Below are positions 4,161-41,092 of a stretch of DNA of 41,092 bases, one piece after another. Positions within the stretch are counted from its first letter, which is position 1. Every line of letters starts with the position of its first letter. Source of the DNA: a virus; the IMG/VR virus record IMGVR_UViG_3300012322_000001; one strand, written 5' to 3'. Under the pieces are notes generated by a model, which saw nothing but the letters and a program-made list of their open reading frames with translations, was not told the DNA's origin and made no database searches. The translations under genes were made by a program, and so were the position numbers.

Positions 4161-4189
4161 AAAAAAGCAAACCCGCCGAAGTGGGTTGG
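4161..4189 (-). terminator. Possible intrinsic terminator (minus strand; weaker)
   Basis: Minus-strand AACCCAC-UUCG-GCGGGUU hairpin with one mismatch, followed by UGC-U6. It lies between the PAPS-reductase-like gene and the next gene. Confidence 0.4.
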
Positions 4190-8609: not shown

Positions 8610-8843
8610 TCAAATGGCGTCAGCGCTGAACTCCAGCGCCTGGATTTTCTGTATTGCGTTCTTGGCATGCTTCTGCACCCAATCAACGTTGACCCACACG
8701 CCAGAGCAGGCCAGTTCTATCTGGCCTAGCGCCTGGACAAGGGTTTGCTGTGTTACTTTCAGCTTTGCAATCTCTTCCTGCTGCTGCAGGATCAGCGCCT
8801 CGGCAATTGCGGGGTGCGCGGCGGCTTTTGCTGCGTCAAGCAT
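8610..8843 (-). CDS. Hypothetical coiled-coil protein, 77 aa
   Basis: Track ORF. It overlaps the upstream gene by 8 nt. Confidence 0.6.
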   Translation of the reverse strand: MLDAAKAAAHPAIAEALILQQQEEIAKLKVTQQTLVQALGQIELACSGVWVNVDWVQKHAKNAIQKIQALEFSADAI

Positions 8844-9462: not shown

Positions 9463-9688
9463 TGGGTTTGAAGAGCCGCGTGGTGCGCGCCACGTCGCTT
9501 GCGATCAATCCGACGCGCGCGGCTGAAAAGAGAGCCGTGTTCGCGCTTCAATCCCAGCATCCGACTTGCTGGGCGGTGGGAAGCGCGCGGCTGGAAAACC
9601 ATCACAACTGCAACCGGCAGAGCTGCAGCACTATCCCGAGGGACCCAGTTGCAGATGTGATGGGCCCTGGGCTTGCCAGGGCGGGGGA

Positions 9689-10042
9689 TCAGGGGTTCGT
9701 GGAGAACGATGTTGGGCTGTCCATGCTGTTCCTCATGGTCAGCGTTGCGCGATTCACGGAGACCGTCGCGTTGCGCCAGACGCCTTCGATAATTCGGCGC
9801 ACGGCATCGGGAGACAGCTTCCACATGTAGTAGTCGTCGCTGCTCGCCAAAACAGTCCACCAGCCGCTGTTCGTTCTGCTGTTCGTGAAACCAGCAGCTC
9901 GCTCATCGGTTTTCTCGAAACCGACGTACTTGAAGCCCACAGGCCAGCCTCCGTTGTCATCGATGTGCTGGAAGAACTTTCCGTCGTCGCGGGCCCACGC
10001 AAAGCTATGCATGAGGCCTTTCACCATCTTCCTATCGTTCAT
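9689..10042 (-). CDS. Hypothetical protein, 117 aa
   Basis: Track ORF. AAGGAG lies 7 nt upstream of the ATG. Confidence 0.65.
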   Translation of the reverse strand: MNDRKMVKGLMHSFAWARDDGKFFQHIDDNGGWPVGFKYVGFEKTDERAAGFTNSRTNSGWWTVLASSDDYYMWKLSPDAVRRIIEGVWRNATVSVNRATLTMRNSMDSPTSFSTNP

Positions 10043-10087
10043 CTCTCATCTCCTTGGTGTGCCCCGGCTACGAGCCGGGGGAGGGGG

Positions 10088-10324
10088 TCAAGCTTGCTCG
10101 GGGTACTGAGCGAGCAAGTCTTCGAGCGTTGGAGCCTTCTCTCCCGGGTCGTAGCAACCTTGCAGTCCGCGCCAGATGCGCACCAGCAGCTCTTCATCGA
10201 CCTCGGCGCACTGGAACGCATCAAGGCCCTTCATTACGAACTCAACGAACGTCGAGTGATCCAGCTGCGTCATTTCCTCTGCCAGCTGCTCGGCATCGAA
10301 GCCGATGTTCAACCTCAGTTCCAT
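10088..10324 (-). CDS. Highly acidic early protein, 78 aa (first gene of the leftward operon)
   Basis: Track ORF 10088-10354 trimmed to MELRLNIGFDAEQ, with AGGAGA upstream. By hand count it has 17 Asp/Glu against 5 Arg/Lys. Confidence 0.7.
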   Translation of the reverse strand: MELRLNIGFDAEQLAEEMTQLDHSTFVEFVMKGLDAFQCAEVDEELLVRIWRGLQGCYDPGEKAPTLEDLLAQYPEQA

Positions 10325-10338
10325 GCTTCTCTCCTGTG

Positions 10339-10371
10339 AAAAAACAAAGCGCACTCGGCGAATGCGCTTTG
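10339..10371 (-). terminator. Intrinsic terminator (minus strand; the hairpin is also flanked by a T-run on the plus strand)
   Basis: 9-bp stem CAAAGCGCA/TGCGCTTTG with a 9-nt loop and U6 on the minus strand. It ends about 4 nt before the SD of gene 10324. Confidence 0.75.
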
Positions 10372-10549
10372 TTTTGCCCAGATGTCGCTCTGGGCCGCGC
10401 CGGTTTCCCGGTCATGCTGTGGCTTCACTGATTGCGTTAGGGGTTCGCCACTCCCGAAGTACCCCGTGCGCGCTCTGTGCGCTGCCTTTGCCCGGGTAAC
10501 TCGCCTGTCGGCAACAGGCCGCGAGACTGCGCGGCCAGGTGGTGGCCTA

Positions 10550-10870
10550 CTACATCGGCCTGACGTCGTGCTTCATGTTCTCTCCTTCGCAGCGCGGGGC
10601 TGCCTGGTTGTCACCGGGAACCCGTCCCGGCGGCGACTGCGCTTTTAGCTCTCGCTGGGTGCAGTACCCAGCGCGCATGCATTTCTGCAATCCGTGACTC
10701 AAGCTGTTTGAAGGCTTGTGCGGCCTTACCGAGTTGCTCCATCGTCCGTGCCCATGCACGCGATCCCCGGACTCGTATCCGCTCCACACCGGCTCACCCG
10801 GCACCTGCGCTGATCGATAGCCCTTGGAACAGTCAGCGCCCGGCCGATCCCGTGACACCCGCCGCCGCAA
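10550..10870 (-). CDS. Questionable ORF: candidate N-like Arg-rich antiterminator (106 codons, TTG start)
   Basis: It is the first ORF after the putative PL. GGAG lies 5 nt before the TTG. The N-terminus is MRRRVSRDR and the composition is disordered (G/P/S/R-rich). Third-position GC is about 70 percent, only slightly above background. It could equally be non-coding. Confidence 0.25.
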   Translation of the reverse strand: MRRRVSRDRPGADCSKGYRSAQVPGEPVWSGYESGDRVHGHGRWSNSVRPHKPSNSLSHGLQKCMRAGYCTQRELKAQSPPGRVPGDNQAAPRCEGENMKHDVRPM

Positions 10871-10972
10871 CCCCGCTCCAGGGCACTGCCCCTAACCCCG
10901 CCTCTGCATCGTTCAGCTACGGCCCGTATCGCTTGGCCTGGGGTGTTTCGCGTTTGTTGCTGCGATGGGTGT

Positions 10973-11031
10973 ATTGAACTATAGTTTTCGCATGCCGTCA
11001 ACTATAGTTTCTTGAAGAGTGAACAAAAGTT
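10973..11031 (-). promoter_or_regulatory. Leftward early promoter with operator set OL (three AACTATAGTT-type sites)
   Basis: Perfect 10-bp palindrome AACTATAGTT at 10977-10986 and 11000-11009, plus an 8/10 copy at 11022-11031. Spacing is 23 and 22 bp. On the minus strand, TTGACG (10996-11001), 17 nt, TTCAAT (10973-10978) overlap the sites. Confidence 0.65.
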
Positions 11032-11043
11032 ATCGCAGGGACG

Positions 11044-11067
11044 AAAAAAAGCCCGCTCAAGGCGGGC
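11044..11067 (-). terminator. Intrinsic terminator ending the cI operon (minus strand)
   Basis: Minus-strand GCCCGC-CUUGA-GCGGGC followed by U7, preceded by a second hairpin GGCTG..CAGCC at about 11082-11105. The same 22-nt hairpin plus T-run recurs at 37945-37966 on the plus strand. Confidence 0.75.
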
Positions 11068-11107
11068 AGGGGATTTGTGGAGGCTGAGCGCTGCGGCTAG
11101 CAGCCTT

Positions 11108-11410
11108 TCAATGATCTTCGAAGCTGATCAGCTTGGCGCCAAGAACTGAGCCGATGAGAGCGCTAGTGAAGCCGAAGTTGAAGAATTCAAGAACTTCATG
11201 AAGTCCAAACCACGACTCTGGGTACTTGGCCCATCTCCATGAGAGTAGGTCGCCTAGAGATGACATCGTTCCAGACGGAATCCAAATTCCATCTTTCAAA
11301 TATGTGAAAAGCTGCCATCCGAGCAGAAGTACACAAACAACCCAAGAGACGCAGAGGACCAAAACACCAACTCCCCTGACGCCTCTAGCTACGAAGTCAT
11401 CAGAACGCAT
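11108..11410 (-). CDS. Membrane protein, 100 aa, low-GC gene co-transcribed with cI
   Basis: Track ORF. Hydrophobic segments VGVLVLCVSWVVCVLLLGW and FGFTSALIGSVLGA. The gene is visibly AT-richer (about 45-47 percent GC by eye) than the genome. Confidence 0.7.
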   Translation of the reverse strand: MRSDDFVARGVRGVGVLVLCVSWVVCVLLLGWQLFTYLKDGIWIPSGTMSSLGDLLSWRWAKYPESWFGLHEVLEFFNFGFTSALIGSVLGAKLISFEDH

Positions 11411-11412
11411 CC

Positions 11413-11811
11413 TTACATCCTAATCTGTAGGTCGTAAGTAGCGCCTGCATCGTCCTGGCACTCACCGAATCCTTGGCTGTTCGTCGTGGAGAACTGGAAC
11501 TGACAGCGCAGCCCCGATCCATCGGCCGCGCGTGCGATCAAGTTGCCGCCGCCAACGCCAGAGCTAGAGCCGAAGCCAGCAAAGCTCTTGCCCTTGCCAG
11601 CTGTGCCGAACATGGAGCCAACAGAGTCTCCAGAGGCAAATACATACTGCCCTCGGTAGAGCTTGTCGCCCAAGGTGATCTCTACCGAGCTGTCGTTCTC
11701 ATGGGCTACACCCTTACCCGTGACAGGCCCTCCGCGCTGCTGGAGATTCAGTTGGTACGAGCAGCCGGCCAACGCCAGGCAGGCGACAGCTCCAATCACT
11801 ATTTTCCTCAT
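11413..11811 (-). CDS. Lipoprotein, 132 aa, directly downstream of cI
   Basis: Track ORF 11413-11844 trimmed to MRKIVIGAVACLALAG|C (lipobox LAGC). GGAGGAG lies between the cI stop and this ATG. Confidence 0.75.
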   Translation of the reverse strand: MRKIVIGAVACLALAGCSYQLNLQQRGGPVTGKGVAHENDSSVEITLGDKLYRGQYVFASGDSVGSMFGTAGKGKSFAGFGSSSGVGGGNLIARAADGSGLRCQFQFSTTNSQGFGECQDDAGATYDLQIRM

Positions 11812-11822
11812 CGCACTCCTCC

Positions 11823-12527
11823 TTAAAGCTTCTGGCCATTCCAAGCCCAGAGCACACGCCCCAGGACGTTCAATTCCTCGCGCCCATCAAGCACATCCAC
11901 AGTCTTGATGGACGGGTTATCGCTGCTGATCTCAAAGCTCCCGTCGTACTTCTGTCGCACGCGCTTGATGAAAACCCGCCCGTGCCCCTCAAGCACATAT
12001 ACGCCATCAATCGTTGGGTCTTTGATCCCCGTGTCCACCAGGAGCACATCCCCATCGTTGTAGGTTCCTTTCATGGAGTCGCCGTAGCCATGAATGAACC
12101 TCAGCGCCCGCAAGCTGGACGGCCGGATGCGCTGCTGAAGCCAGGAGCGCGAGATTGGCAGGTCGCCTGTGAAGACCTCGCCATCAAGGCCGTCATCGCC
12201 CTGGCCCATAGAGCCTGAGTTCGCCAGCAAAGGAACCATCAGCGTGTCCTCTTCGTTTTGCCGGGATGGCGCAAGCGCTGGCACCTCGATCACCTGGACG
12301 CGGCCCATTGGCCCCTCCCCAAGGGCAAGCCAGTCAGAAGCCACATTCAGTTCACGCGCCGCCACGGCGTTGTTCTCGGCGCTGAAAGTCTTGCTCAGAC
12401 CCTCAACCACCTTTCGCGCTGCTTGATAGGACACGCCAAGACGCTTCGCAAGCTCCTTGGTGTCCATCTTTGCAGCGGTCATTGCCTCGTTCAGGCGCTC
12501 TCTGTAATCAACCATGGTTGTGATCAT
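11823..12527 (-). CDS. cI: cI-type repressor (N-terminal HTH plus C-terminal S24/LexA-like autopeptidase)
   Basis: The HTH is TKELAKRLGVSYQAARKVVEG. The S24 motifs are GDSM (Ser) and FIKRV (Lys). It is divergent from a cro-like gene across operator repeats. The start is ambiguous (ATG at 12527 or 12515) and no SD is visible, so the leader may be short or absent. Confidence 0.85.
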   Translation of the reverse strand: MITTMVDYRERLNEAMTAAKMDTKELAKRLGVSYQAARKVVEGLSKTFSAENNAVAARELNVASDWLALGEGPMGRVQVIEVPALAPSRQNEEDTLMVPLLANSGSMGQGDDGLDGEVFTGDLPISRSWLQQRIRPSSLRALRFIHGYGDSMKGTYNDGDVLLVDTGIKDPTIDGVYVLEGHGRVFIKRVRQKYDGSFEISSDNPSIKTVDVLDGREELNVLGRVLWAWNGQKL

Positions 12528-12542
12528 TGGTTGTTTCAAGAA

Positions 12543-12575
12543 AACTATAGTTTCCTTTGTGCGTGAACTATGGTT
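12543..12575. promoter_or_regulatory. Operator set OR in the cI/cro divergent region
   Basis: AACTATAGTT at 12543-12552 and AACTATGGTT at 12566-12575, 23 bp apart. Both lie between the cI start (12527) and the cro start (12586). Confidence 0.7.
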
Positions 12576-12585
12576 AAATGAACGC

Positions 12586-12801
12586 ATGACGATCCAGAAA
12601 ACCGATGCCATAGCTGTGCTGGGCGGCTCGAAGCGCGATGCTGCTTCGGCCCTCGGCGTGTCCTACCAGGCCATTGACAAGTGGCCGGAGACCTTGAGCA
12701 ACAAGGTCGCTGATCGCGTGCTCGCTGCGTGGGCGCGGAGGAACGTGAAGAACCTCCCTGGGCCGTTCCGCACAGCCAAGCAAAAAACCACCTCCCGCTA
12801 A
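12586..12801 (+). CDS. cro: Cro-like small HTH regulator, 71 aa
   Basis: Track ORF 12514-12801 trimmed to MTIQKTDAIAVLGGSKRDAASALGVSYQAIDKW, an HTH. It is divergent from cI. Confidence 0.75.
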   Translation: MTIQKTDAIAVLGGSKRDAASALGVSYQAIDKWPETLSNKVADRVLAAWARRNVKNLPGPFRTAKQKTTSR

Positions 12802-12828
12802 CCCAACAACAAAGTTCCCGAGCCTCCT

Positions 12829-13080
12829 ATGTCGTACCAAAACCGTGACCTCATCCGCAAACCCCTGTGCCTGCTGCGCGCCAGCAAGGAAGAGCGCGAG
12901 AAGCTGATTGCCTGGGCTGAGATGAAGTCCAACGGTGGTGCTGTGGCCCCGACCTTGCTGGATGCACTCCTGGCCTTGGCAGACAAGGAGCTGATGGAAG
13001 AAGAGCGTCGTCATGCCGCCAATGCTAGGCAGCGCCACGGGCTTGACAGGAACGCTTTTGGCGCCCTGCTGAACGCCTAG
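12829..13080 (+). CDS. Hypothetical protein, 83 aa (possible ribbon-helix-helix)
   Basis: Track ORF. The RASKEEREKLIAWAE...LLDALLALA pattern looks RHH/MobC-like. Its position corresponds to cII in lambdoid phages. Confidence 0.6.
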   Translation: MSYQNRDLIRKPLCLLRASKEEREKLIAWAEMKSNGGAVAPTLLDALLALADKELMEEERRHAANARQRHGLDRNAFGALLNA

Positions 13081-13097
13081 AACACAGGAGACATCCC

Positions 13098-13316
13098 ATG
13101 CAGGACTTGTCTGATCCCCACGATGAACCAATGGCGCTGGACTTCTCCGGCGTTGACCAGAAGCGCATGCGTGCTCTTCAAAAGCTAGCAGACAGGTCCG
13201 GCAAGTCCTTCGAGGACTTCGCCCTGCAGACCCTCCTGGCTGCTGCTGACCACGATGAAAAAAGGTCCAAGCCGAGCACCTTCGCGCGGCTCTTCGGTTT
13301 CCGCGCTGCTCGCTAG
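13098..13316 (+). CDS. Hypothetical protein, 72 aa (possible ribbon-helix-helix)
   Basis: Track ORF. AGGAGA lies upstream of the ATG. Confidence 0.6.
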   Translation: MQDLSDPHDEPMALDFSGVDQKRMRALQKLADRSGKSFEDFALQTLLAAADHDEKRSKPSTFARLFGFRAAR

Positions 13317-13355
13317 TACGGAACTTCGCAGTAACTCAAAACATACGGAGCCGAA

Positions 13356-14108
13356 ATGCGAGATTACGGGAAGGTCCACAGCACGTTCTGGTCGAGCCCC
13401 ACGACCAGCAGCATGACGGACGACGGAAAGGTTCTGGCCCTGTACCTGCTGACGTGTTCTCACAGCACCATCGCAGGGGTTTTCAGGCTACCTGATGGGT
13501 ACGTTTCGGAAGACTTGGGATGGCCTTTGGAAAGGGTTGCCCAAGGGTTCGAGGAACTGTTCGCCAATGGTTTCGCTAACCGTTGCGCAACCACTAAATG
13601 GGTCTGGATTTCCAAGCATTTGGAGTGGAACAAGCCGGAGAACCCAAACCAGCGCAAGTCAGCCGCCAAGATCGCTCTCAGCGTGCCAGACGAATGTGGC
13701 TGGAAGCTAGATTTCATGCGGGTTTGCGGTCCATTGCTTGAGATCGAAGCGCCACAAATTTCTAACCCTTCCGAAACCGTTAGCCAACCCTTTCTTAACC
13801 AGGAACAGAAACAGGAACAGAAGAGTATTGATGCTCCTTCTGCGAAGTCGCCACGTGGCACCGCCTTGGCGGCGGACTGGACCCTTCCTGATGACTGGAA
13901 AACCTGGGCAGAGAAGGAACGCCCGGATCTGGACATGGGAAAGGTTGGGGATTCATTTCGCGATTTCTGGATTGCCAAGCCGGGTAAGGACGGGCGCAAA
14001 GCGGACTGGCACGCGACGTGGCGCAACTGGGTGCGGAACCAACGCCAGGGCTACCAGCACACCCAGGTCAGCGGACGGGCAGACACCGCCCCGAGGAACT
14101 TCGTGTGA
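13356..14108 (+). CDS. Replication initiation protein (O-like N-terminal domain, DnaT-like C-terminal domain)
   Basis: N-terminal FWSSP..MTDDGKVLALYLLTCSHSTIAGVFRLPDGYV and C-terminal FRDFWIAKPGKDGRKADWHATWRNWV are typical of phage replication or primosome-recruiting proteins. An internal lower-GC repeat region is present (see findings). Confidence 0.65.
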   Translation: MRDYGKVHSTFWSSPTTSSMTDDGKVLALYLLTCSHSTIAGVFRLPDGYVSEDLGWPLERVAQGFEELFANGFANRCATTKWVWISKHLEWNKPENPNQRKSAAKIALSVPDECGWKLDFMRVCGPLLEIEAPQISNPSETVSQPFLNQEQKQEQKSIDAPSAKSPRGTALAADWTLPDDWKTWAEKERPDLDMGKVGDSFRDFWIAKPGKDGRKADWHATWRNWVRNQRQGYQHTQVSGRADTAPRNFV

Positions 14109-14479
14109 TCGGCCATACCCCCCTGCTGAGGATGCGCCGCGACGGCGTGCTGCCCTACGACGTGGTCCACGTCATCGACGGTGACAGCGAGTTCGCAATC
14201 GAGCTTGCCCAGCAATGGCACCGCATCCCGAGCTCGGCAAGCGGCCTGCTCACACCACATGTGGTCGTCGGGCAGGAAGACAGCCCTGAACGCCTGGACG
14301 TGCGGTTCTGCCGTCAGCTGGGCGTGGTACTGGAAGCCAACCGAGGGCAAGAGCGCGCACAGCGTTTGTTCAAAGCAATCCGGGCAGTTGAGCCAGCCAT
14401 TCTGTGCTGCGCCATGCCCGACGAAATCTGGTTTTACACGAAGGAGCAAGGCGGCAATGGCAAACGTATTCACGCCTGA
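14105..14479 (+). CDS. Hypothetical protein, about 124 aa (GTG start overlapping the upstream stop)
   Basis: Track ORF 14018-14479. The first 29 codons overlap the preceding gene. GTGA coupling at 14105-14108. It lies between the initiator and the helicase. Confidence 0.5.
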   Translation: MIGHTPLLRMRRDGVLPYDVVHVIDGDSEFAIELAQQWHRIPSSASGLLTPHVVVGQEDSPERLDVRFCRQLGVVLEANRGQERAQRLFKAIRAVEPAILCCAMPDEIWFYTKEQGGNGKRIHA

Positions 14480-15428
14480 CGACATCGATTTCGCTGCCTA
14501 CGAGCACGAGACCGATGCGCAGCAGAAGGTGCTCCCGGCATCGTCCTGGGTGCAGGAGCTGATCGACCGGATTCGCAACCCGATCCGCGCAAAGCAGGCT
14601 TTCATGCCGTGGCGCAAGACGGCCCAGTTGGTGCAGTTTCGCCCGGGTGAGGTGACGCTGTGGGGCGGGGCAAACGGCAATGGCAAGTCGCTGGTGACGG
14701 GGCAAGTCGCGCTGTCGCTGTGCGGCCAGGGCGAGCGCGTGGCAATCGCCAGCTTCGAGATGAAGCCCATCAAGACGCTGGAGCGCATGGGCCGCCAGTG
14801 GTCTGGCACAAACCCAGCGCACCCAGCCTATGCAGGGAACGACGACGGCCAGCGCATCCTGATCGACACCTACGAGCAGTTCCGCGACTGGACCGACAAC
14901 AAGCTGTGGCTGTACGACCAGCAGGGCACCGTGACGGCCTCCAAAGTCTGCGCCGTGGTCCGCTACGCCGCGGTTGAGCTCAAGGTCACTCACTTCGTCG
15001 TGGACAGCCTGATGAAGTGCGTGCAGGGCGAGGACGACTACAACGGCCAGAAGCTTTTCGTTGACGAGCTCACCGCCATTGCCCGCGACCACGGCATTCA
15101 CATCCATCTGATCCACCACATCAAGAAACCCGCGAGCGAGGACCACAAGCCCAACAAGTACGACATGAAGGGCTCGGGAGCCATCACCGACCAGGTGGAC
15201 AACGTGATCGCCGTGTGGCGCAACAAGCCCAAGGAGCGCAAGCGCGATGAGGGCCTGCTGACCGAGGAAGCCGACGTGAAAGAGCCCGACTGCCTGCTCA
15301 TCTGCGACAAGCAGCGCAATGGCGAGTGGGAAGGCTCAATTGGCCTCTGGTTCGAGCGCGACAGCCAGCAGTTCGTCGCATCCCATGGCGAAGAGCCTCT
15401 TGTGCTCTACACGCCCGACATGCAGTAA
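14457..15428 (+). CDS. DnaB-C / RecA-fold replicative helicase-type ATPase, 323 aa
   Basis: Track ORF 14181-15428 trimmed to MANVFTPDD, with AAGGAG 10 nt upstream. Walker A is GGANGNGKS, Walker B is HFVVDSLM, and there is an IHLIHHIKK segment. Confidence 0.8.
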   Translation: MANVFTPDDIDFAAYEHETDAQQKVLPASSWVQELIDRIRNPIRAKQAFMPWRKTAQLVQFRPGEVTLWGGANGNGKSLVTGQVALSLCGQGERVAIASFEMKPIKTLERMGRQWSGTNPAHPAYAGNDDGQRILIDTYEQFRDWTDNKLWLYDQQGTVTASKVCAVVRYAAVELKVTHFVVDSLMKCVQGEDDYNGQKLFVDELTAIARDHGIHIHLIHHIKKPASEDHKPNKYDMKGSGAITDQVDNVIAVWRNKPKERKRDEGLLTEEADVKEPDCLLICDKQRNGEWEGSIGLWFERDSQQFVASHGEEPLVLYTPDMQ

Positions 15429-15456
15429 CTCAACCGATCAACAAAGGAGTGGGGCA

Positions 15457-15705
15457 ATGAGCAAGACAGAGACACAGAGCGAGTCGCTGAGGCTGGCGGA
15501 GATGCTGGAGAAGGGGCCGCGCCGCCAAGGGGATGTGCGGATCGCCGCCGTGCTGCGCGGCCTGGACGCAGAGAACAAGGCCCTGCGCTCTGCCATCGGT
15601 GACGCGTGCGAGGGATGGAATATGCACCCGGATTTGAGGAAGCTCCTTGAGGCGGCGCTTTGGGCCAAGCCTGAGGCAGCAGCCAAGATCGGAGGCGCAG
15701 CATGA
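15457..15705 (+). CDS. Hypothetical protein, 82 aa
   Basis: Track ORF 15319-15705 trimmed to MSKTETQSE, with AAGGAG upstream. Confidence 0.6.
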   Translation: MSKTETQSESLRLAEMLEKGPRRQGDVRIAAVLRGLDAENKALRSAIGDACEGWNMHPDLRKLLEAALWAKPEAAAKIGGAA

Positions 15706-15881
15706 GCATCACCATCTCTTGGTGGCATATCCCAGCCTGCATCACCGTCACATGGCTGGTAGTTCTGTTTTGGCCCCAGCGGAGCGCATGGGACACGATC
15801 GCACATGGCTTTGTTGTAGTGGTTGCGCTGATCCCGGTTTTGCTCGTTTGGATCGCTTCACTGCTGTGGAGGCTGGCATGA
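15702..15881 (+). CDS. Small two-helix membrane protein, 59 aa (MSITISWWHIPACITVTWLVVLFW...)
   Basis: Hand-translated. ATGA overlaps at both ends (15702-15705 and 15878-15881). Below the track cutoff. Confidence 0.5.
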   Translation: MSITISWWHIPACITVTWLVVLFWPQRSAWDTIAHGFVVVVALIPVLLVWIASLLWRLA

Positions 15882-16246
15882 GCACCGAACGCGAAATGCT
15901 GGAGGCGGCGGCACGGGCCATTGGCATCACGATCACCTGGGACCACGGCCAGGAATTCCCCGAGCGAGTGGAGCTGTTCCGTGGGCACTTTGAAAACTAC
16001 GAGCCCTGGAGCCCCAGGCTCTACAGCTCTGACGCATTCGAGCTTGCCGCCGCGCTGCGCATCAGCGTGGAGCACAACCACGCCGAAGAAACACGTCCTT
16101 GGGTCTGCGCGACGATTGACGGAGGACCACTGAGGATGAAAAAGGCCTTTGTCGAAGACGTGCCCGACGAATCCCAGCGCGCAGACCGCATGCGGCTCGC
16201 CATCCTGCGCTGTGCCGCTGCTCAGGCGCCGAAGGAGCAAGCATGA
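15878..16246 (+). CDS. Hypothetical protein, 122 aa (NinX/DUF2591-like pattern)
   Basis: Track ORF 15647-16246 trimmed to MSTEREMLEAAARAIGI...EPWSPRLYSSDAFELAAALRISV. Confidence 0.65.
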   Translation: MSTEREMLEAAARAIGITITWDHGQEFPERVELFRGHFENYEPWSPRLYSSDAFELAAALRISVEHNHAEETRPWVCATIDGGPLRMKKAFVEDVPDESQRADRMRLAILRCAAAQAPKEQA

Positions 16247-16491
16247 CCCCGACCGGAACCGAAGCCCAGGTCTGCGAAGACATCGCGCGACGCCAGCAGT
16301 TCGGCCTGCACAAGTACGGCACTACGGTGGCCCAGAACCCGCTGGAGCTGCGCCAGTGGCTCAAGCATGCATACGAAGAGGCCCTGGGCCAAGCTATCTA
16401 CCTGCGCCGCGCCATGGCCGAAATCGACACCATCCTGGCGCGCGACGAGCTGGCCGACATGGTGCGGGCGGGGAAGGGGGCTCAGGCATGA
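16243..16491 (+). CDS. Hypothetical protein, 82 aa
   Basis: Track ORF. ATGA coupling at both ends. Confidence 0.65.
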   Translation: MTPTGTEAQVCEDIARRQQFGLHKYGTTVAQNPLELRQWLKHAYEEALGQAIYLRRAMAEIDTILARDELADMVRAGKGAQA

Positions 16492-16763
16492 GCGCACCTA
16501 TCGAAACAGTGACCCTGGTCGAAATCCTGCCCACCAAGATCTGGGTGGAGAGCGACATTTTCGGTTCGCGCCATGTGATGGTCCAGCACCAGGGCATGAA
16601 GGCCTTCAGGTACGCCAGCTTCTTCTATGGCTACGGCTACACCAGCAATGGCGGGACTTTGGCCGCTGCCGAGGCCGTTGCGCTATCTCTGGGGGCAACG
16701 CAGCCCATCGACCACCGCCAGGTGCTCGCGCCTTCTTTCGCCAAGGAGGATCGCAATGACTGA
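16488..16763 (+). CDS. Hypothetical protein, 91 aa
   Basis: Track ORF 16149-16763 trimmed to MSAPIETVTL. ATGA overlap at 16488-16491. Confidence 0.6.
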   Translation: MSAPIETVTLVEILPTKIWVESDIFGSRHVMVQHQGMKAFRYASFFYGYGYTSNGGTLAAAEAVALSLGATQPIDHRQVLAPSFAKEDRND

Positions 16764-17175
16764 CCGTCTCGAACTGGAGCTGCACAACCGCGCCCAGGCC
16801 TGGAGCCTGATCCAGTCGCAGCTGTACCCGTTCCTGCGGGATGCGCTGCAGGGCGGCGGCCGGTGGGTGCTGACCATTGGCCGCCGCAAGCGCACGAAGG
16901 CGCAGAACCGCCGTTACTGGGGCGGTGGAGTCCTGGCCCAGATCGCGCAGCAGGCCACCACAGCAGATGGCCGGATGCACAGCGCCGAGAACTGGCATGA
17001 AGCATTCAAGCAAATGTTCATCGGGGTCGAGGAGCTGCCCAACGGCAACGTGATCGGCAAAAGCAGCGCCGACCTGAGCACGGCCGAGTTCTCCGAGTTC
17101 TGCACCCGGGTGGAGGCCTACGCAGCGTCCGAGCTGGGGGTGACGTTCTATGACCTGTGGGAGGAAAAGCGATGA
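16756..17175 (+). CDS. ninB: NinB/Orf-family recombination mediator, 139 aa
   Basis: RTKAQNRRYWGG...AENWHEAFKQMF...GKSSADLSTAEFSEFCTRVEAYAASELGV parallels lambda NinB (RSLDQNRKLWA...ESWK..F...GQSTSRMRVGEFAELLELIQAFGTERGV). Confidence 0.75.
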   Translation: MTDRLELELHNRAQAWSLIQSQLYPFLRDALQGGGRWVLTIGRRKRTKAQNRRYWGGGVLAQIAQQATTADGRMHSAENWHEAFKQMFIGVEELPNGNVIGKSSADLSTAEFSEFCTRVEAYAASELGVTFYDLWEEKR

Positions 17176-17408
17176 GCGACTATCTGGAACCCATCACAAG
17201 CCTGGTTGAGCTGAATGATGATGAATGCCTGGCTGGCTATCACGCTGGCCTCGGGTTCATTGAAGTTGACCACACGCAGAAGAGCCGCAGCTACTGGCAC
17301 GGCTACAGCAACGGCCGAGCAGATCGCCGGCTGGAGCCCATCAGCCCCGCTGCGCATGCGATCGCGCGCCAGATGGTGGCTGAACGCCGGGCGAAAGGGA
17401 TGCATTGA
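17172..17408 (+). CDS. Hypothetical protein, 78 aa
   Basis: Track ORF 17157-17408 trimmed to MSDYLEP. ATGA overlap with the ninB stop. Confidence 0.6.
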   Translation: MSDYLEPITSLVELNDDECLAGYHAGLGFIEVDHTQKSRSYWHGYSNGRADRRLEPISPAAHAIARQMVAERRAKGMH

Positions 17409-17992
17409 TGACCTTCCGTCGCACACGCTGTGCCCACTGTCGCACCAAGCTCACGCCCGAGCGCCCCAGCCAGATCGTCCATGCCGAATGCGCAGAGCCA
17501 TACGCCATCGCCAAGCGCGAGAAGGAGGAGCGAGCCCAGGCCAAGGCAGCGCGCATGGCCGCCCGGGTAGCGAAGGCTGAGATTCGCCGGCGCAAGGAGG
17601 CCGCCAAGCCACGCGCCAAGTGGCTTTCCGAGTGCCAGGACATCATCAACAAGATCGTCCGTCTGCGCGACAAGCACTTGGGCTGCTGCTCATGTGACCG
17701 CGGCCCCGAATGGGATGGCCAGTGGCACGCATCGCACCTGCGTTCCGTGGGCGCCGCGTCAGCAGTCCGGTTCCATCTCTGGAACATCCACAAGGGCTGC
17801 TCCATATGCAACAAGCACCTGAGCGGCAACCTGGCTGAGTACCTGCCGCGCATCCGCGCCCGCATCGGCGATGACAAGGTGGACTGGCTCTACACCCAGA
17901 ACCAGCTCGTCAAGCACGACGTCGAGTACCTCAAGAAATTCAAGCGAGTGATGGGCAAACGCCTGCGCCGCATCGAAAAACGCTGCAACTGA
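17408..17992 (+). CDS. ninG: NinG/Rap-family recombination endonuclease, 194 aa
   Basis: CAHC...C, then KWLSECQDIINKIVRLRD...CCSC....QWHASH..S.G....RF.LWN.HKGCSICNKHLSGN..EY is the NinG pattern. The ATG at 17408 overlaps the upstream TGA. Confidence 0.8.
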   Translation: MTFRRTRCAHCRTKLTPERPSQIVHAECAEPYAIAKREKEERAQAKAARMAARVAKAEIRRRKEAAKPRAKWLSECQDIINKIVRLRDKHLGCCSCDRGPEWDGQWHASHLRSVGAASAVRFHLWNIHKGCSICNKHLSGNLAEYLPRIRARIGDDKVDWLYTQNQLVKHDVEYLKKFKRVMGKRLRRIEKRCN

Positions 17993-18005
17993 AGAAGGAG
18001 CCCAC

Positions 18006-18398
18006 ATGCTGATGAAAGCATACGTTGACTACAACCTCATCAAAGCCGAGCACGAAGAGATCCACGTCAGGCTCCAGAACTGGGCGCGGTGGGTCCGCGG
18101 AGGCAATACCGCCCTATCGCACCCCATGTGGCGCTTCTTCAAAGAGAAGGAGGCCAGTGAGTCCGTCCCGCTGGATCACATCCCAATCAACAGCCTGGAT
18201 GCCCACGCGCTAGAAAAGCTCGTCGTTGATCTCCCAGAGAAGCAGCGCCACGCAGTCCGCTGGTGGTACGTCTACGCCAACAACCCCAGGAAAGCGGCCA
18301 AGCTTTTGGGCGTCACGATGGACGCGCTGAACGAACTGGTGCATGACGCCAGAACGATGCTGAAAAACCGCGCAAAGCCAGTTGCAATTCGCAAATGA
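18006..18398 (+). CDS. Q-like late-gene regulator (putative antiterminator), 130 aa
   Basis: LQNWARWVRGG...DAHALEKLVVDLPEKQRHAVRWWYVYANNPRKAAKLLGV resembles the phage antitermination-Q layout (LERWGAW...DDDA...YY). It is the last gene of the early-right operon. Confidence 0.55.
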   Translation: MLMKAYVDYNLIKAEHEEIHVRLQNWARWVRGGNTALSHPMWRFFKEKEASESVPLDHIPINSLDAHALEKLVVDLPEKQRHAVRWWYVYANNPRKAAKLLGVTMDALNELVHDARTMLKNRAKPVAIRK

Positions 18399-18475
18399 TT
18401 CTGGTAACGTGGCAGCCATCGTTAGCAACAGCACTAGAACGTCCCGGTTTGCGCCGGGATAGGTGCGAGCAACAC

Positions 18476-18507
18476 AAAGCCCTGACCAGAAATGGCCGGG
18501 GCTTTTT
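18476..18507. terminator. Hairpin terminator between the convergent Q-like gene and the reverse cassette (T5 on the plus strand; weaker T-rich tail on the minus strand)
   Basis: AAAGCCC-TGACCA-GAAA-TGGCCG-GGGCTTT followed by TTTTT on the plus strand. On the minus strand it is followed by GTGTT. Confidence 0.7.
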
Positions 18508-18571
18508 CATTTCCGCAGGGCGGCACTAACCCCTCAAGCCCTCCTCCTCCGAGTGCTTAGCCCTGCACCCA

Positions 18572-40751: not shown

Positions 40752-41092
40752 GCGCTCTGCGGTGGGGGATTTTTGCCCTATCTTTTTGATCGCAAGATCG
40801 AGGGATCTTGTTGCCAGGTGGGAGTACCTAGCTGTACTCCGCTGATCACGATGTCCGAGCACGGCCCCCACGGTGTAGAGGTCGATGTCGTTGTTGATCA
40901 TCTCCGACGCCGCCGAGTGCCGCAGATCGTGGAAGTGCAGATCCTTGTGCCCTAGCGCCCTGGCCGCCTCGCGAAAGTACGACTGCACCGTAATCTTTGC
41001 AGGCTTGCGCGACGTGTTGTGCGCTGCCGTCCAGACTCGGGGATGAATCGGGACGATGCGCGGCTCGCCGTTCTTCGTGTCGTCCAAGTGCC
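40737..41092 (-). CDS. int: Tyrosine integrase, 3' portion (catalytic C-terminus)
   Basis: HDLRHSAAS, LGH and ARYSH (the H-x-x-R, H and Y of the tyrosine recombinase catalytic set). It is in frame with 1-773 through the 127-nt overlap. Confidence 0.9.
   Translation of the reverse strand, partial: HLDDTKNGEPRIVPIHPRVWTAAHNTSRKPAKITVQSYFREAARALGHKDLHFHDLRHSAASEMINNDIDLYTVGAVLGHRDQRSTARYSHLATRSLDLAIKKIGQKSPTAERKKAA
40761..40775 (+). repeat. Direct repeat GGTGGGGGATTTTTG (candidate arm-type site, copy 2; inside the int 3' end)
   Basis: Matches 40527-40542 except for one extra G in copy 1. Confidence 0.4.
40966..41092. repeat. Terminal overlap copy 2 (identical to 1-127)
   Basis: See 1-127. Confidence 0.95.

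Follow-up and report, generated by a model that had tools for sequence, protein, structure and literature searches.

A modular, structurally conserved leader RNA ahead of the early-left operon of a lambdoid phage, with a possible role in terminator read-through

Lambdoid phages are the textbook system for the study of transcription antitermination. In phage HK022 the put RNA brings about terminator read-through without any protein factor, acting via the zinc-binding domain of the RNA polymerase beta-prime subunit and, to our knowledge, there are two well-known RNA-only processive antiterminators, namely put and EAR. In the PL transcript of HK022, folding of putL starts at nucleotide 3 (PMC9378689). 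Like putL and putR, the leader described here is an RNA that directly follows an early promoter in a lambdoid phage without N (PMC9378689). It also resembles put in that folding involves the first nucleotides of the transcript (as judged from a predicted +1) and that a terminator-studded operon lies downstream (PMC9378689). The phage is complete (40,965 bp) and was analysed within a stretch of 41,092 nucleotides, henceforth referred to as the window.

The leader lies on the minus strand and extends over ~628 nt from the predicted PL start (A10966) to the end of a terminator at 10339, preceding the first early-left gene (gene 10324) of a ~10-kb operon which reaches an integrase-like gene at its left end. 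A preliminary description of this DNA had proposed a gene-free PL leader of ~620 nt with a start near 10965; our values (~628 nt, predicted start A10966) are close to both, and we found every feature it described where it had been placed. The PL-type promoter with its two operators occupies 10973..11009 (minus strand) and comprises a -35 element TTGACG (11001-10996), a 17-nt spacer and a -10 element TTCAAT (10978-10973), and is overlapped twice by the palindrome AACTATAGTT (11000-11009 and 10977-10986). The predicted +1, the A of CCCAUCGC, was derived as the -10 TTCAAT plus 7. The same layout (TTGACA-N17-xAxxxT) was found in ~30 related loci, where the operator repeats are locus-specific. The 628 nt from ~10966 to 10339 form the untranslated leader of the leftward early (PL) transcript, which is under repressor control. 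This leader is more than a product of chance, because other phages conserve it through compensatory base changes and because it folds more stably than shuffled sequence (z = -2.8; 20 shuffles). Judged by comparison with homologous sequences, it is a chain of separable, conserved RNA structures with no conserved protein: a 5' domain, a module MX, a hairpin-SD-mini-ORF unit (M5), a module M6, a GNRA hairpin (M7b) and a hairpin followed by a bidirectional terminator (M8). From MX onwards, each of these recurs independently of the others. One suggestion of the preliminary description, a structured RNA, therefore holds as regards its RNA nature, given the strong covariation, with the qualification that it is an array of separable modules and not one element.

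Two further suggestions had been a hidden N-like protein encoded by a 106-codon TTG ORF (10870-10550) and a protein encoded by a 43-codon ATG ORF (10742-10611), the latter lying inside a 58-codon GTG ORF. Both ORFs exist in the window, but comparison refutes both suggestions. The frame of the first is interrupted by a TAG in the related locus L134 and by a frameshift in L113/L135, and its TTG start and GGAG sit within the conserved P1/J3 of the 5' domain. In L113/L135, codon 9 of the second is a stop, and in L134 its frame changes where the RNA hairpin alone is kept. More generally, ORF starts in the leader lack a usable SD or fall inside conserved helices, none of the leader ORFs has a Pfam match or belongs to a recognised family, and the gap runs in the alignment of the window with L113 (1,1,2,2,1,13,24,2,1,3,1,2) include indels whose lengths are not divisible by three. 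One frame does remain open over MX in both the window and L135 (63% identity over 35 aa), but this identity is confined to a stretch which is 85–90% identical as DNA and in which hairpin changes are compensatory; beyond it, L135 has a 1-nt shift of the frame and L134 a TAG. Comparing codon-type with covariation-type conservation across homologous leaders, as had been proposed, gave broken reading frames on the one hand and compensatory pair changes on the other. We rejected the protein readings because both frames are interrupted in four homologous leaders, through stop codons, frameshifts and indels of lengths other than multiples of three, and we regard a real small protein product (whether the 106-aa Arg-rich, the 43/58-aa or another frame) as highly improbable.

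The 5' domain (10855..10969, minus strand; 115 nt) was recognised by its match to model R1 and by pair covariation. Its helix P1 is formed by 10969-10956 pairing with 10871-10855 and starts at the predicted +1 or within 3 nt of it (P1 from 10969-10966); the junction reads GCGAAAC. The three-way junction consists of P2 (ACCCC/GGGGU), P2a (loop AAGCGAUACG) and P2b, and P3 is the hairpin at 10892-10880. When the window was searched with R1 (filters off), the sole strong match was at 10892-10955 (79.5 bits), with a weak second match to the M8 hairpin (18.9 bits) and no second, putR-like copy on the PR side. One R1 copy per phage was also found elsewhere, including in four complete or near-complete genomes. 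In the alignment of the domain 94% of cells were paired, compared with 31–57% in slid controls. Changes on both sides of a pair affected 16/32 pairs in a manual alignment, which leans towards structure, and 12/13 core pairs in the model-based alignment A6, which agrees with it for the core; RNAalifold run on plain MAFFT alignments lost P1 and P3 through misalignment. The domain lies ~7 nt behind repressor-controlled promoters in phages and prophages (~30, heteroimmune) from a single Burkholderiales family. A CsrA-type GGA loop in P2b occurs in some members (ACAGGAUGCA) and was rejected as a general feature, being absent from the window and from Acidovorax phage AP1. A hammerhead-like reading of GCGAAAC was likewise rejected (CUGAUGA is absent), and crossing (pseudoknot) alternatives to P1 in L072 and L103 were explained by untranscribed promoter bases and homology to L095.

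What might such a domain do? Its unpaired junction and loop nucleotides are highly conserved while its stems covary, an aptamer-like pattern that could indicate a riboswitch or a thermosensor tuning early-left translation or stability to the state of the host. The domain is present with or without downstream terminators. In short-leader relatives it is joined directly to the SD-ATG, and in 5/8 of these the first gene has an SD that overlaps with the 3' strand of P1 (CGAUGGAG). We nevertheless consider a sensor leader quite unlikely, since known riboswitch classes were unmatched, an expression platform is not evident in the window (where 500 nt of other modules follow the domain) and the genes downstream are functionally unrelated and hence suggest no ligand. 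The 5' domain cannot be an antiterminator by itself, because up to 9 kb is free of terminators in those relatives whose first gene directly follows the domain. Instead, or in addition, it may control 5'-end stability or translation of the first gene.

Within the window, a degenerate M2-like hairpin (10835..10859, minus strand; loop ..GGGAUCGGCC..) occupies the position of the M2 hairpin of relatives. The relatives have GGUGC-CAAGUGAUCGAGCCA-GCACC at this site, followed by an rrn-like boxA (e.g., GGCUCCUUAAAA in L116, GGGUCUUUAAAAAG in L041 and GAUCCUUAAAAAUCC in L163, all long leaders with boxA behind the hairpin), in agreement with the host rrn leader, in which a hairpin is followed by GGAUCCUUAAAAAUA. 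An exact search for GNTCTTTAACAA in host G036 found nothing because the host boxA reads GGATCCTTAAAAATA. The window leader contains no boxA at ≤3 mismatches and reads GCUAUCGAUCAGCG at the boxA position of the relatives; its subfamily has MX (10694..10805, minus strand) in that place. This module, common to L134, L135/L113 and L136, is the best-conserved part of the window leader. It is made up of a hairpin, CCGG-GUGAG-CCGG, and a compound stem, GAGU..[AUCG CGUGC-AUGG-GCACG GA CGAU]..ACUC, with compensatory changes from CGUGC/GCACG to CGCAC/GUGCG and from C-G to U-A. Further downstream lies the hairpin CGCUGGGU-ACUGC-ACCCAGCG (10653..10673, minus strand; CGCTGGGT-ACTGC-ACCCAGCG as DNA), which is kept in L134 with another loop length and has CGCG...CGCG in its place in L135. 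As the hairpin is kept with a changed loop or sequence, conservation here is at the level of RNA and not of a reading frame.

Module M5 (10550..10603, minus strand) combines a hairpin, GCAGC-CCCGC-GCUGC (10603-10589), an SD, GAAGGAGAG (10588-10580), and a mini-ORF, MKHDVRPM* (10576-10550). It recurs in relatives as a hairpin-SD-ATG with 3–8 unrelated codons: L135 (MRDTQAG), L136 (MRHT), L048 (MTPD), AP1 (MNTA), L115/L170 and L162. Considered as a leader-peptide attenuator, the unit has a conserved SD-mini-ORF whose stop adjoins or enters the next hairpin, but ~175 nt separate its end from the terminator, with which no alternative pairing was found. The next module, M6 (10421..10505, minus strand; one copy in the window), has the layout ..UUGCC GACAGGCGAGUUACCCGG GGCAA.. 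GCGC hairpin .. GGGGUACUU..UGGCGAACCCC UAACGCA ..AAGCC. Its stem S1 covaries (UUGCC/GGCAA, UUGUC/GACAA, CUGUC/GACAG); outside S1 and a second stem, S2, bias from the search pattern left the sequences too uniform, and a proposed UACCC/GGGUA pseudoknot had no covariation support. Thirteen more IMG/VR contigs carry M6 without the 5' core. In L160 and L166 it is found in the late-operon leader after a Q-like gene and downstream of the late-operon terminator, a position more in keeping with a role at the mRNA level (in processing, stability or translation) than with antitermination. M7b is the GNRA hairpin CCGG-GAAA-CCGG (10400..10411, minus strand), replaced at the same position in relatives by CCGA-GCAA-UCGG, CCGA-GUAA-UCGG, CCGA-GAAA-UCGG or CCGG-AUUGAGUAA-CCGG. 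This hairpin, the one with the ACUGC loop and the mini-ORF had all been pointed out previously; all are present, and two of them, the GAAA hairpin and the mini-ORF, prove to be conserved modules.

The leader ends with M8 (10339..10396, minus strand), i.e., a GC hairpin, GGCCCAGAGCGACAUCUGGGC (10396-10376; loop GCGACA), and an intrinsic terminator with A-tract and U-tract, AAAACAAAGCGCA-UUCGCCGAG-UGCGCUUUGUUUUUU (10375-10339). Our own scan found this terminator on both strands, making it bidirectional; a first scan had missed it solely on account of its 9-nt loop. The U-run is followed by 4 nt and then by AGGAGAG and the ATG of gene 10324, bearing out the strong terminator that had been placed ~4 nt before the SD of this gene. 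M8-type units with fully covarying stems were found in all long-leader relatives, and in L033, L022 and L041 they are repeated between genes.

The hairpins of the leader could also be read as a nut-like landing pad, to which a protein of the phage (e.g., one encoded in the PR operon) or of the host would bind before being loaded onto RNA polymerase, making early-left expression delayed-early. A candidate GCGAnAC motif occurs in junction J, the P2a loop and the pre-terminator hairpin, alongside the GNRA hairpin; GCGA(A/G)AC, AGCGAUACG and GAGCGACAUC are found repeatedly in loops or single-stranded parts; the M8 hairpin is the site of the 18.9-bit R1 match; and M8 loops of relatives read GCGAGAC, GCGACAU or GCGAAAU. 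Furthermore, the conserved GNRA hairpin recalls the fold of boxB, and the position is that of lambda nutL. However, several M8 hairpins (L135, L048, L115) lack the GCGAnAC loop, no Arg-rich N-like protein was found in the early-left or early-right operon, a PL-encoded factor is precluded by the first terminator lying ahead of all PL genes, and flanking genes are not conserved across the RNA-bearing loci. We therefore hold this reading to be unlikely.

Besides the terminator of M8 (10371), the scan found intrinsic terminators in the early-left operon at 9463-9435, 5076-5043 and 4187-4161, giving four on the minus strand in all (10371, 9463, 5076, 4187). None was found in the early-right operon (12500-18400), the first plus-strand terminator coming after the Q-like gene. 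There is no space for a promoter after the M8 terminator, and hence the early-left genes need read-through of M8 and of three more terminators. Among relatives, downstream sense terminators (2–7) were present in all 8 long-leader relatives and in none of the 5 short-leader relatives (Fisher p ~0.001). At least three long leaders with terminators (L115, L116, L134) lack the 5' core.

Considering this, the most likely role of the leader, though we put it forward tentatively, is that of a cis-acting element licensing terminator read-through in the manner of put or of rrn boxA. We favour it by analogy and because there are four early-left terminators, none on the early-right side and no N-like gene. 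The leader would occupy the site of lambda nutL and N and perform their job in cis, with one or more of its modules making the elongation complex initiated at PL resistant to termination. Read-through might be achieved by the leader alone (as with the HK022 put RNA) or together with host Nus factors (as with the rrn boxA leader), while transcription entering from elsewhere would be stopped by the bidirectional terminators. Leaky termination by itself could also provide enough read-through. A more far-reaching version, which we see as possible but rather doubtful, is that the 5' domain, MX, M6 and others are exchangeable RNA cassettes, each an undescribed class shuffled between early and late leaders; at least one of them would be a new put-like, protein-independent processive antiterminator for betaproteobacterial RNA polymerase, with the 5' domain as a separate element for sensing or stability. 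Speaking against an antiterminator role are the terminator-bearing long leaders that lack the 5' core, the late-leader position of M6, the absence from the window of the boxA of its relatives, the lack of a copy on the PR side and the lack of likeness to HK022 put.

Alternatively, the leader may be the product in its own right: one or more stand-alone, structured early ncRNAs of ~0.63 kb, abundant because most PL transcripts would end at 10339, and acting whole or processed, with a role in trans (a decoy, an anti-defence RNA or a regulator) and with the genes expressed through a leaky fraction of transcripts. A strong bidirectional terminator directly ahead of the first SD would suit such an RNA, as would modules that behave as exchangeable cassettes across different leaders, the occurrence of M6 in both early and late leaders, and the long stem with variable cargo in leaders of relatives, which in L022 includes a tRNA-Ala-like element. 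On the other hand, the leader RNA always lies upstream of genes that depend on read-through, its 5' domain is fused to the SD-ATG in short-leader relatives (which argues for a cis role of that module), and neither target complementarity nor a known sRNA family was found; on this evidence, we find a trans-acting RNA somewhat improbable.

Database searches placed the leader outside described families. In Rfam 15 nothing exceeded the gathering threshold, whether for the window leader or for those of 8 relatives, and a permissive scan (9500-12000 and the loci of the 8 relatives) gave as best hits chance terminator matches to Trp_leader and Xoo2 (E 0.25–0.7). Against GenBank phages, blastn returned a sole match of 80 nt, in AP1, and a search of plasmid sequences returned none. 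At the order level 0/400 genomes matched, as opposed to 6 true matches in 300 genomes at the family level. Genes up- and downstream are not conserved across the RNA-carrying loci. An excess of G over C as a signature of Rho evasion (G/C of 1.24 in the window versus 1.03 in coding sequence) was dropped as inconsistent in relatives.

At this locus, 630 nt of conserved, covarying RNA replace the N gene in a lambda-like phage from another class of bacteria, and this leader fronts an operon that is not expressible without terminator read-through. Natural combinations of modules, which include or lack the core, have either boxA or MX and occur in leaders of early as well as late operons, amount to a ready-made deletion series for assigning functions to the individual RNAs. 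The analysis also provides at least three RNA motifs that Rfam does not contain and with which prophage immunity regions of Comamonadaceae-type genomes can be annotated. With the phage and leader RNAs that Rfam does contain (C4 antisense, IsrK, Trp leader) they share the character of short structured RNAs in prophage regulatory regions.

Set against HK022, the differences are considerable: put spans ~70 nt with two stems and is present in both early operons (putL, putR), whereas the window has a single copy, on the left side, of a 115-nt domain with P1, a three-way junction and P3, followed by 500 nt of modules; the hosts here are Betaproteobacteria, and the activity is putative. Searching the HK022 genome with R1 gave no match to put (best 10 bits, elsewhere). 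With lambda nutL-N the leader shares a conserved GNRA-type hairpin and its slot, which follows cI, accessory genes, a terminator and OL/PL and precedes a recombination/int operon with tL terminators. It differs in having no N gene, in placing the first terminator ahead of all genes and in lacking boxA, so that the GNRA hairpin (10411-10400) is without the partner of a lambda boxA-boxB arrangement. The rrn leader (boxB-boxA-boxC, NusB/E/SuhB) is resembled by leaders of the relatives, which likewise have a hairpin and then a host-like boxA, followed by a long stem around variable RNA, once tRNA-like; the window subfamily lost or never had boxA and has MX. Phage leaders end at an intrinsic terminator and feed protein genes, unlike the rrn leader, but both are long untranslated RNAs that need to escape termination.

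The first 127 bases of the window are identical to its last 127 (positions 40966-41092), so the record represents a circularly closed genome of 40,965 bp. The phage is lambdoid: on the minus strand, genes for a lipoprotein and a membrane protein and then a terminator (11067-11043) come after a Peptidase_S24 repressor gene (11823-12611), while rightward of the repressor gene lie a cro-like gene, genes for a DnaD-like loader, a DnaB-like helicase, NinB and NinG, a weak Q-like gene (18006-18398) and the large terminase gene. The features listed in the preliminary description were all present on re-check. The palindrome AACTATAGTT overlaps the PL-type promoter (11001-10973; TTGACG, 17 nt, TTCAAT) in two copies and has a third on the PR side, and the predicted +1 is A10966, counted 7 nt from the -10 element. 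The leader, about 628 nt on the minus strand, ends in a GC hairpin (10396-10376) and an A-tract/U-tract terminator (10375-10339) that scores on both strands; the SD of the first early-left gene (gene 10324) begins 4 nt past the U-run, with no space for a promoter in between.

We found a full-length homologue of this leader in a prophage of host genome G036 (L113/L114, identical to IMG/VR contig L135) and partial homologues in L134 and L136. The window and L113 leaders align over 561 nt at 70% identity, and the alignment gaps are 1, 1, 2, 2, 1, 13, 24, 2, 1, 3, 1 and 2 nt long. The N-like 106-codon TTG ORF proposed earlier (10870-10550) is frameshifted in L135 and interrupted by TAG in L134, its start sitting within helix P1 of the conserved 5' domain, and the 43-codon ATG ORF (10742-10611) meets a stop at codon 9 in L135. 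One leader frame has 63% identity across 35 residues; at the DNA level this stretch is 85-90% identical, and where it differs the hairpins show compensatory changes (CGUGC/GCACG to CGCAC/GUGCG; C-G to U-A). Pfam gave no family match to the ORFs of 106, 58/43 and 91 codons in the leader. Given the broken frames, the compensatory changes and the TTG within P1, we rejected the protein readings, and a protein hidden in the leader is very improbable.

The 5' domain (10969-10855) was found by blastn as an 80-nt match directly behind the equivalent promoter in Acidovorax phage AP1, which is arranged in the same way (Xre repressor, two small genes, terminator, promoter and about 830 unannotated nt finishing in a hairpin, terminator and SD-ATG). 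About 30 distinct members emerged when IMG/VR, GTDB genomes and metagenomes were scanned first by pattern and then with a covariance model, the named hosts being Comamonas, Paenacidovorax and one Comamonadaceae MAG. Each phage has exactly one copy. Of 301 genomes sampled within the family, 7 contained the domain (6 being new true hits), and a further 400 from across the order had none; no Rfam family matched it. In every member the domain starts about 7 nt past the -10 of a TTGACA-N17 promoter. The operator repeats flanking these promoters vary between loci, meaning that the phages differ in immunity yet have the transcribed sequence in common.

The domain consists of P1, which closes it from the first nucleotides, a junction (..GCGARAC), a three-way junction of P2 (ACCCC/GGGGU), P2a (loop AGCGAUACG) and P2b, then UUA and hairpin P3. 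In a manual alignment (n=19), 94.4% of cells pair, vs. 79.7% when shuffled and 35-51% when partners were slid; both sides changed in 16 of 32 pairs, and in 12 of 13 core pairs of a model-made alignment of 26 matches, both alignments being biased towards structure. Double-changed pairs include P2, which reads GACC/GGUC or GAGC/GCUC in distant members. Pairing by chance is made unlikely by the results with slid partners and by the large number of independent pair types. One Comamonas prophage (L064, 7230-7420) carries an extra hairpin of about 190 nt, flanked by perfectly complementary sequences, inserted between junction J3 and the P1 3' strand. That the leader serves as a landing pad for some protein we consider improbable; GCGAnAC loops do recur, and the covariance model of the domain core (R1) weakly matches the terminator-proximal hairpin.

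Downstream of the 5' domain the leader is modular. In most relatives the domain is followed by a hairpin with loop ..AGUGAUCGAGC.. and a boxA-like word (GGCUCCUUAAAA, GGGUCUUUAAAAAG or GAUCCUUAAAAAUCC), as in many related PL leaders (L116, L041, L163, L159, L165). The rrn leader of host G036 (L140) likewise has a hairpin and then the near-identical GGAUCCUUAAAAAUA / GGATCCTTAAAAATA, and this match indicates that the relatives carry an rrn-type boxA. Beyond it lies a long covarying stem around variable RNA; within that of L022, ARAGORN calls a tRNA-Ala(UGC)-like element (1658-1739) that the Rfam tRNA model does not match, and a second, Rfam-recognised tRNA lies further along the same early-left operon (2747-2855). 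In the window subfamily (window, L136, L135, L134) boxA is absent and module MX (10805-10694; compared across three independent sequences) stands in its place. The following unit (10603-10550), conserved in at least 7 leaders, comprises a hairpin, GAAGGAGA and a mini-ORF of 3-8 unrelated codons. The CCGG-GAAA-CCGG hairpin (10411-10400) is one version of a conserved GNRA-loop hairpin, and the terminal hairpin and terminator (10396-10339) are universal among long leaders and recur further downstream, between genes, in L033, L022 and L041. In L115, L116 and L134 the P2-P3 core is missing, and all that the leader retains at its 5' end is a hairpin resembling P1. On the minus strand, the window, L134 and L135 share three conserved GATC words, one in the M2 hairpin loop (10849), one where relatives have boxA (10822) and one in MX (10765), which may reflect either contacts of the RNA or sites of DNA methylation.

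Module M6 (10505-10421) recurs in 13 further viral contigs without the 5' core, a set gathered with a strict pattern that overstates its conservation. In L160 and L166 it lies, together with an M7-type hairpin, about 140 nt downstream of a Q-like gene, between a tR'-like terminator, which it follows directly, and the HNH and terminase genes, i.e., in a late-operon leader, so that the same RNA cassette is used in early and late leaders. This position after a late terminator points to a role at the mRNA level. Elsewhere, L160 carries a C4 antisense RNA (8665-8754; Rfam RF01695, 49.9 bits, above threshold).

The early-left operon has intrinsic terminators at 10371, 9463 and 5076 and a weaker one at 4187, hence all genes left of 10339 need read-through for expression. 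The first precedes any PL-encoded protein, none of which can be made before 10339 is read through, nor was an N-like protein evident in any part of the genome. That the leader yields a terminated RNA acting in trans seems rather unlikely. Intrinsic terminators are absent from the early-right operon (12500-18400), whose Q-like gene is directly followed by a bidirectional terminator (18471-18512); the late region has five (24353, 27212, 32015, 37945, 40761), as expected under Q control. All eight long-leader members have 2-7 downstream sense terminators, and all five short-leader members, with the 5' domain fused to the first gene, have none. Our best reading, tentative and at somewhat less than even chance, is that the long leader acts in cis to give PL-initiated transcription resistance to terminators. 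In relatives this resistance would arise via the rrn-like boxA, and in the window subfamily via another module, with MX the prime suspect. Our observations show that the 5' domain is insufficient to explain an antitermination role and is not tied to terminators. Since the P1 3' strand overlaps the SD in 5 of 8 short-leader members, a role for the domain in translation, stability or sensing is a live alternative; a riboswitch-like sensor as the function of the leader is a long shot. A literature search on these leaders found nothing.

Among known systems, the HK022 genome gave no match to the 5' domain. The hairpin and boxA of the rrn leader are common to the relatives' leaders, whereas the window leader lacks boxA; the relatives thus seem to borrow rrn-type boxA antitermination and the window does not. 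In gene layout, the leader occupies the genomic place that nutL and N hold in lambda.
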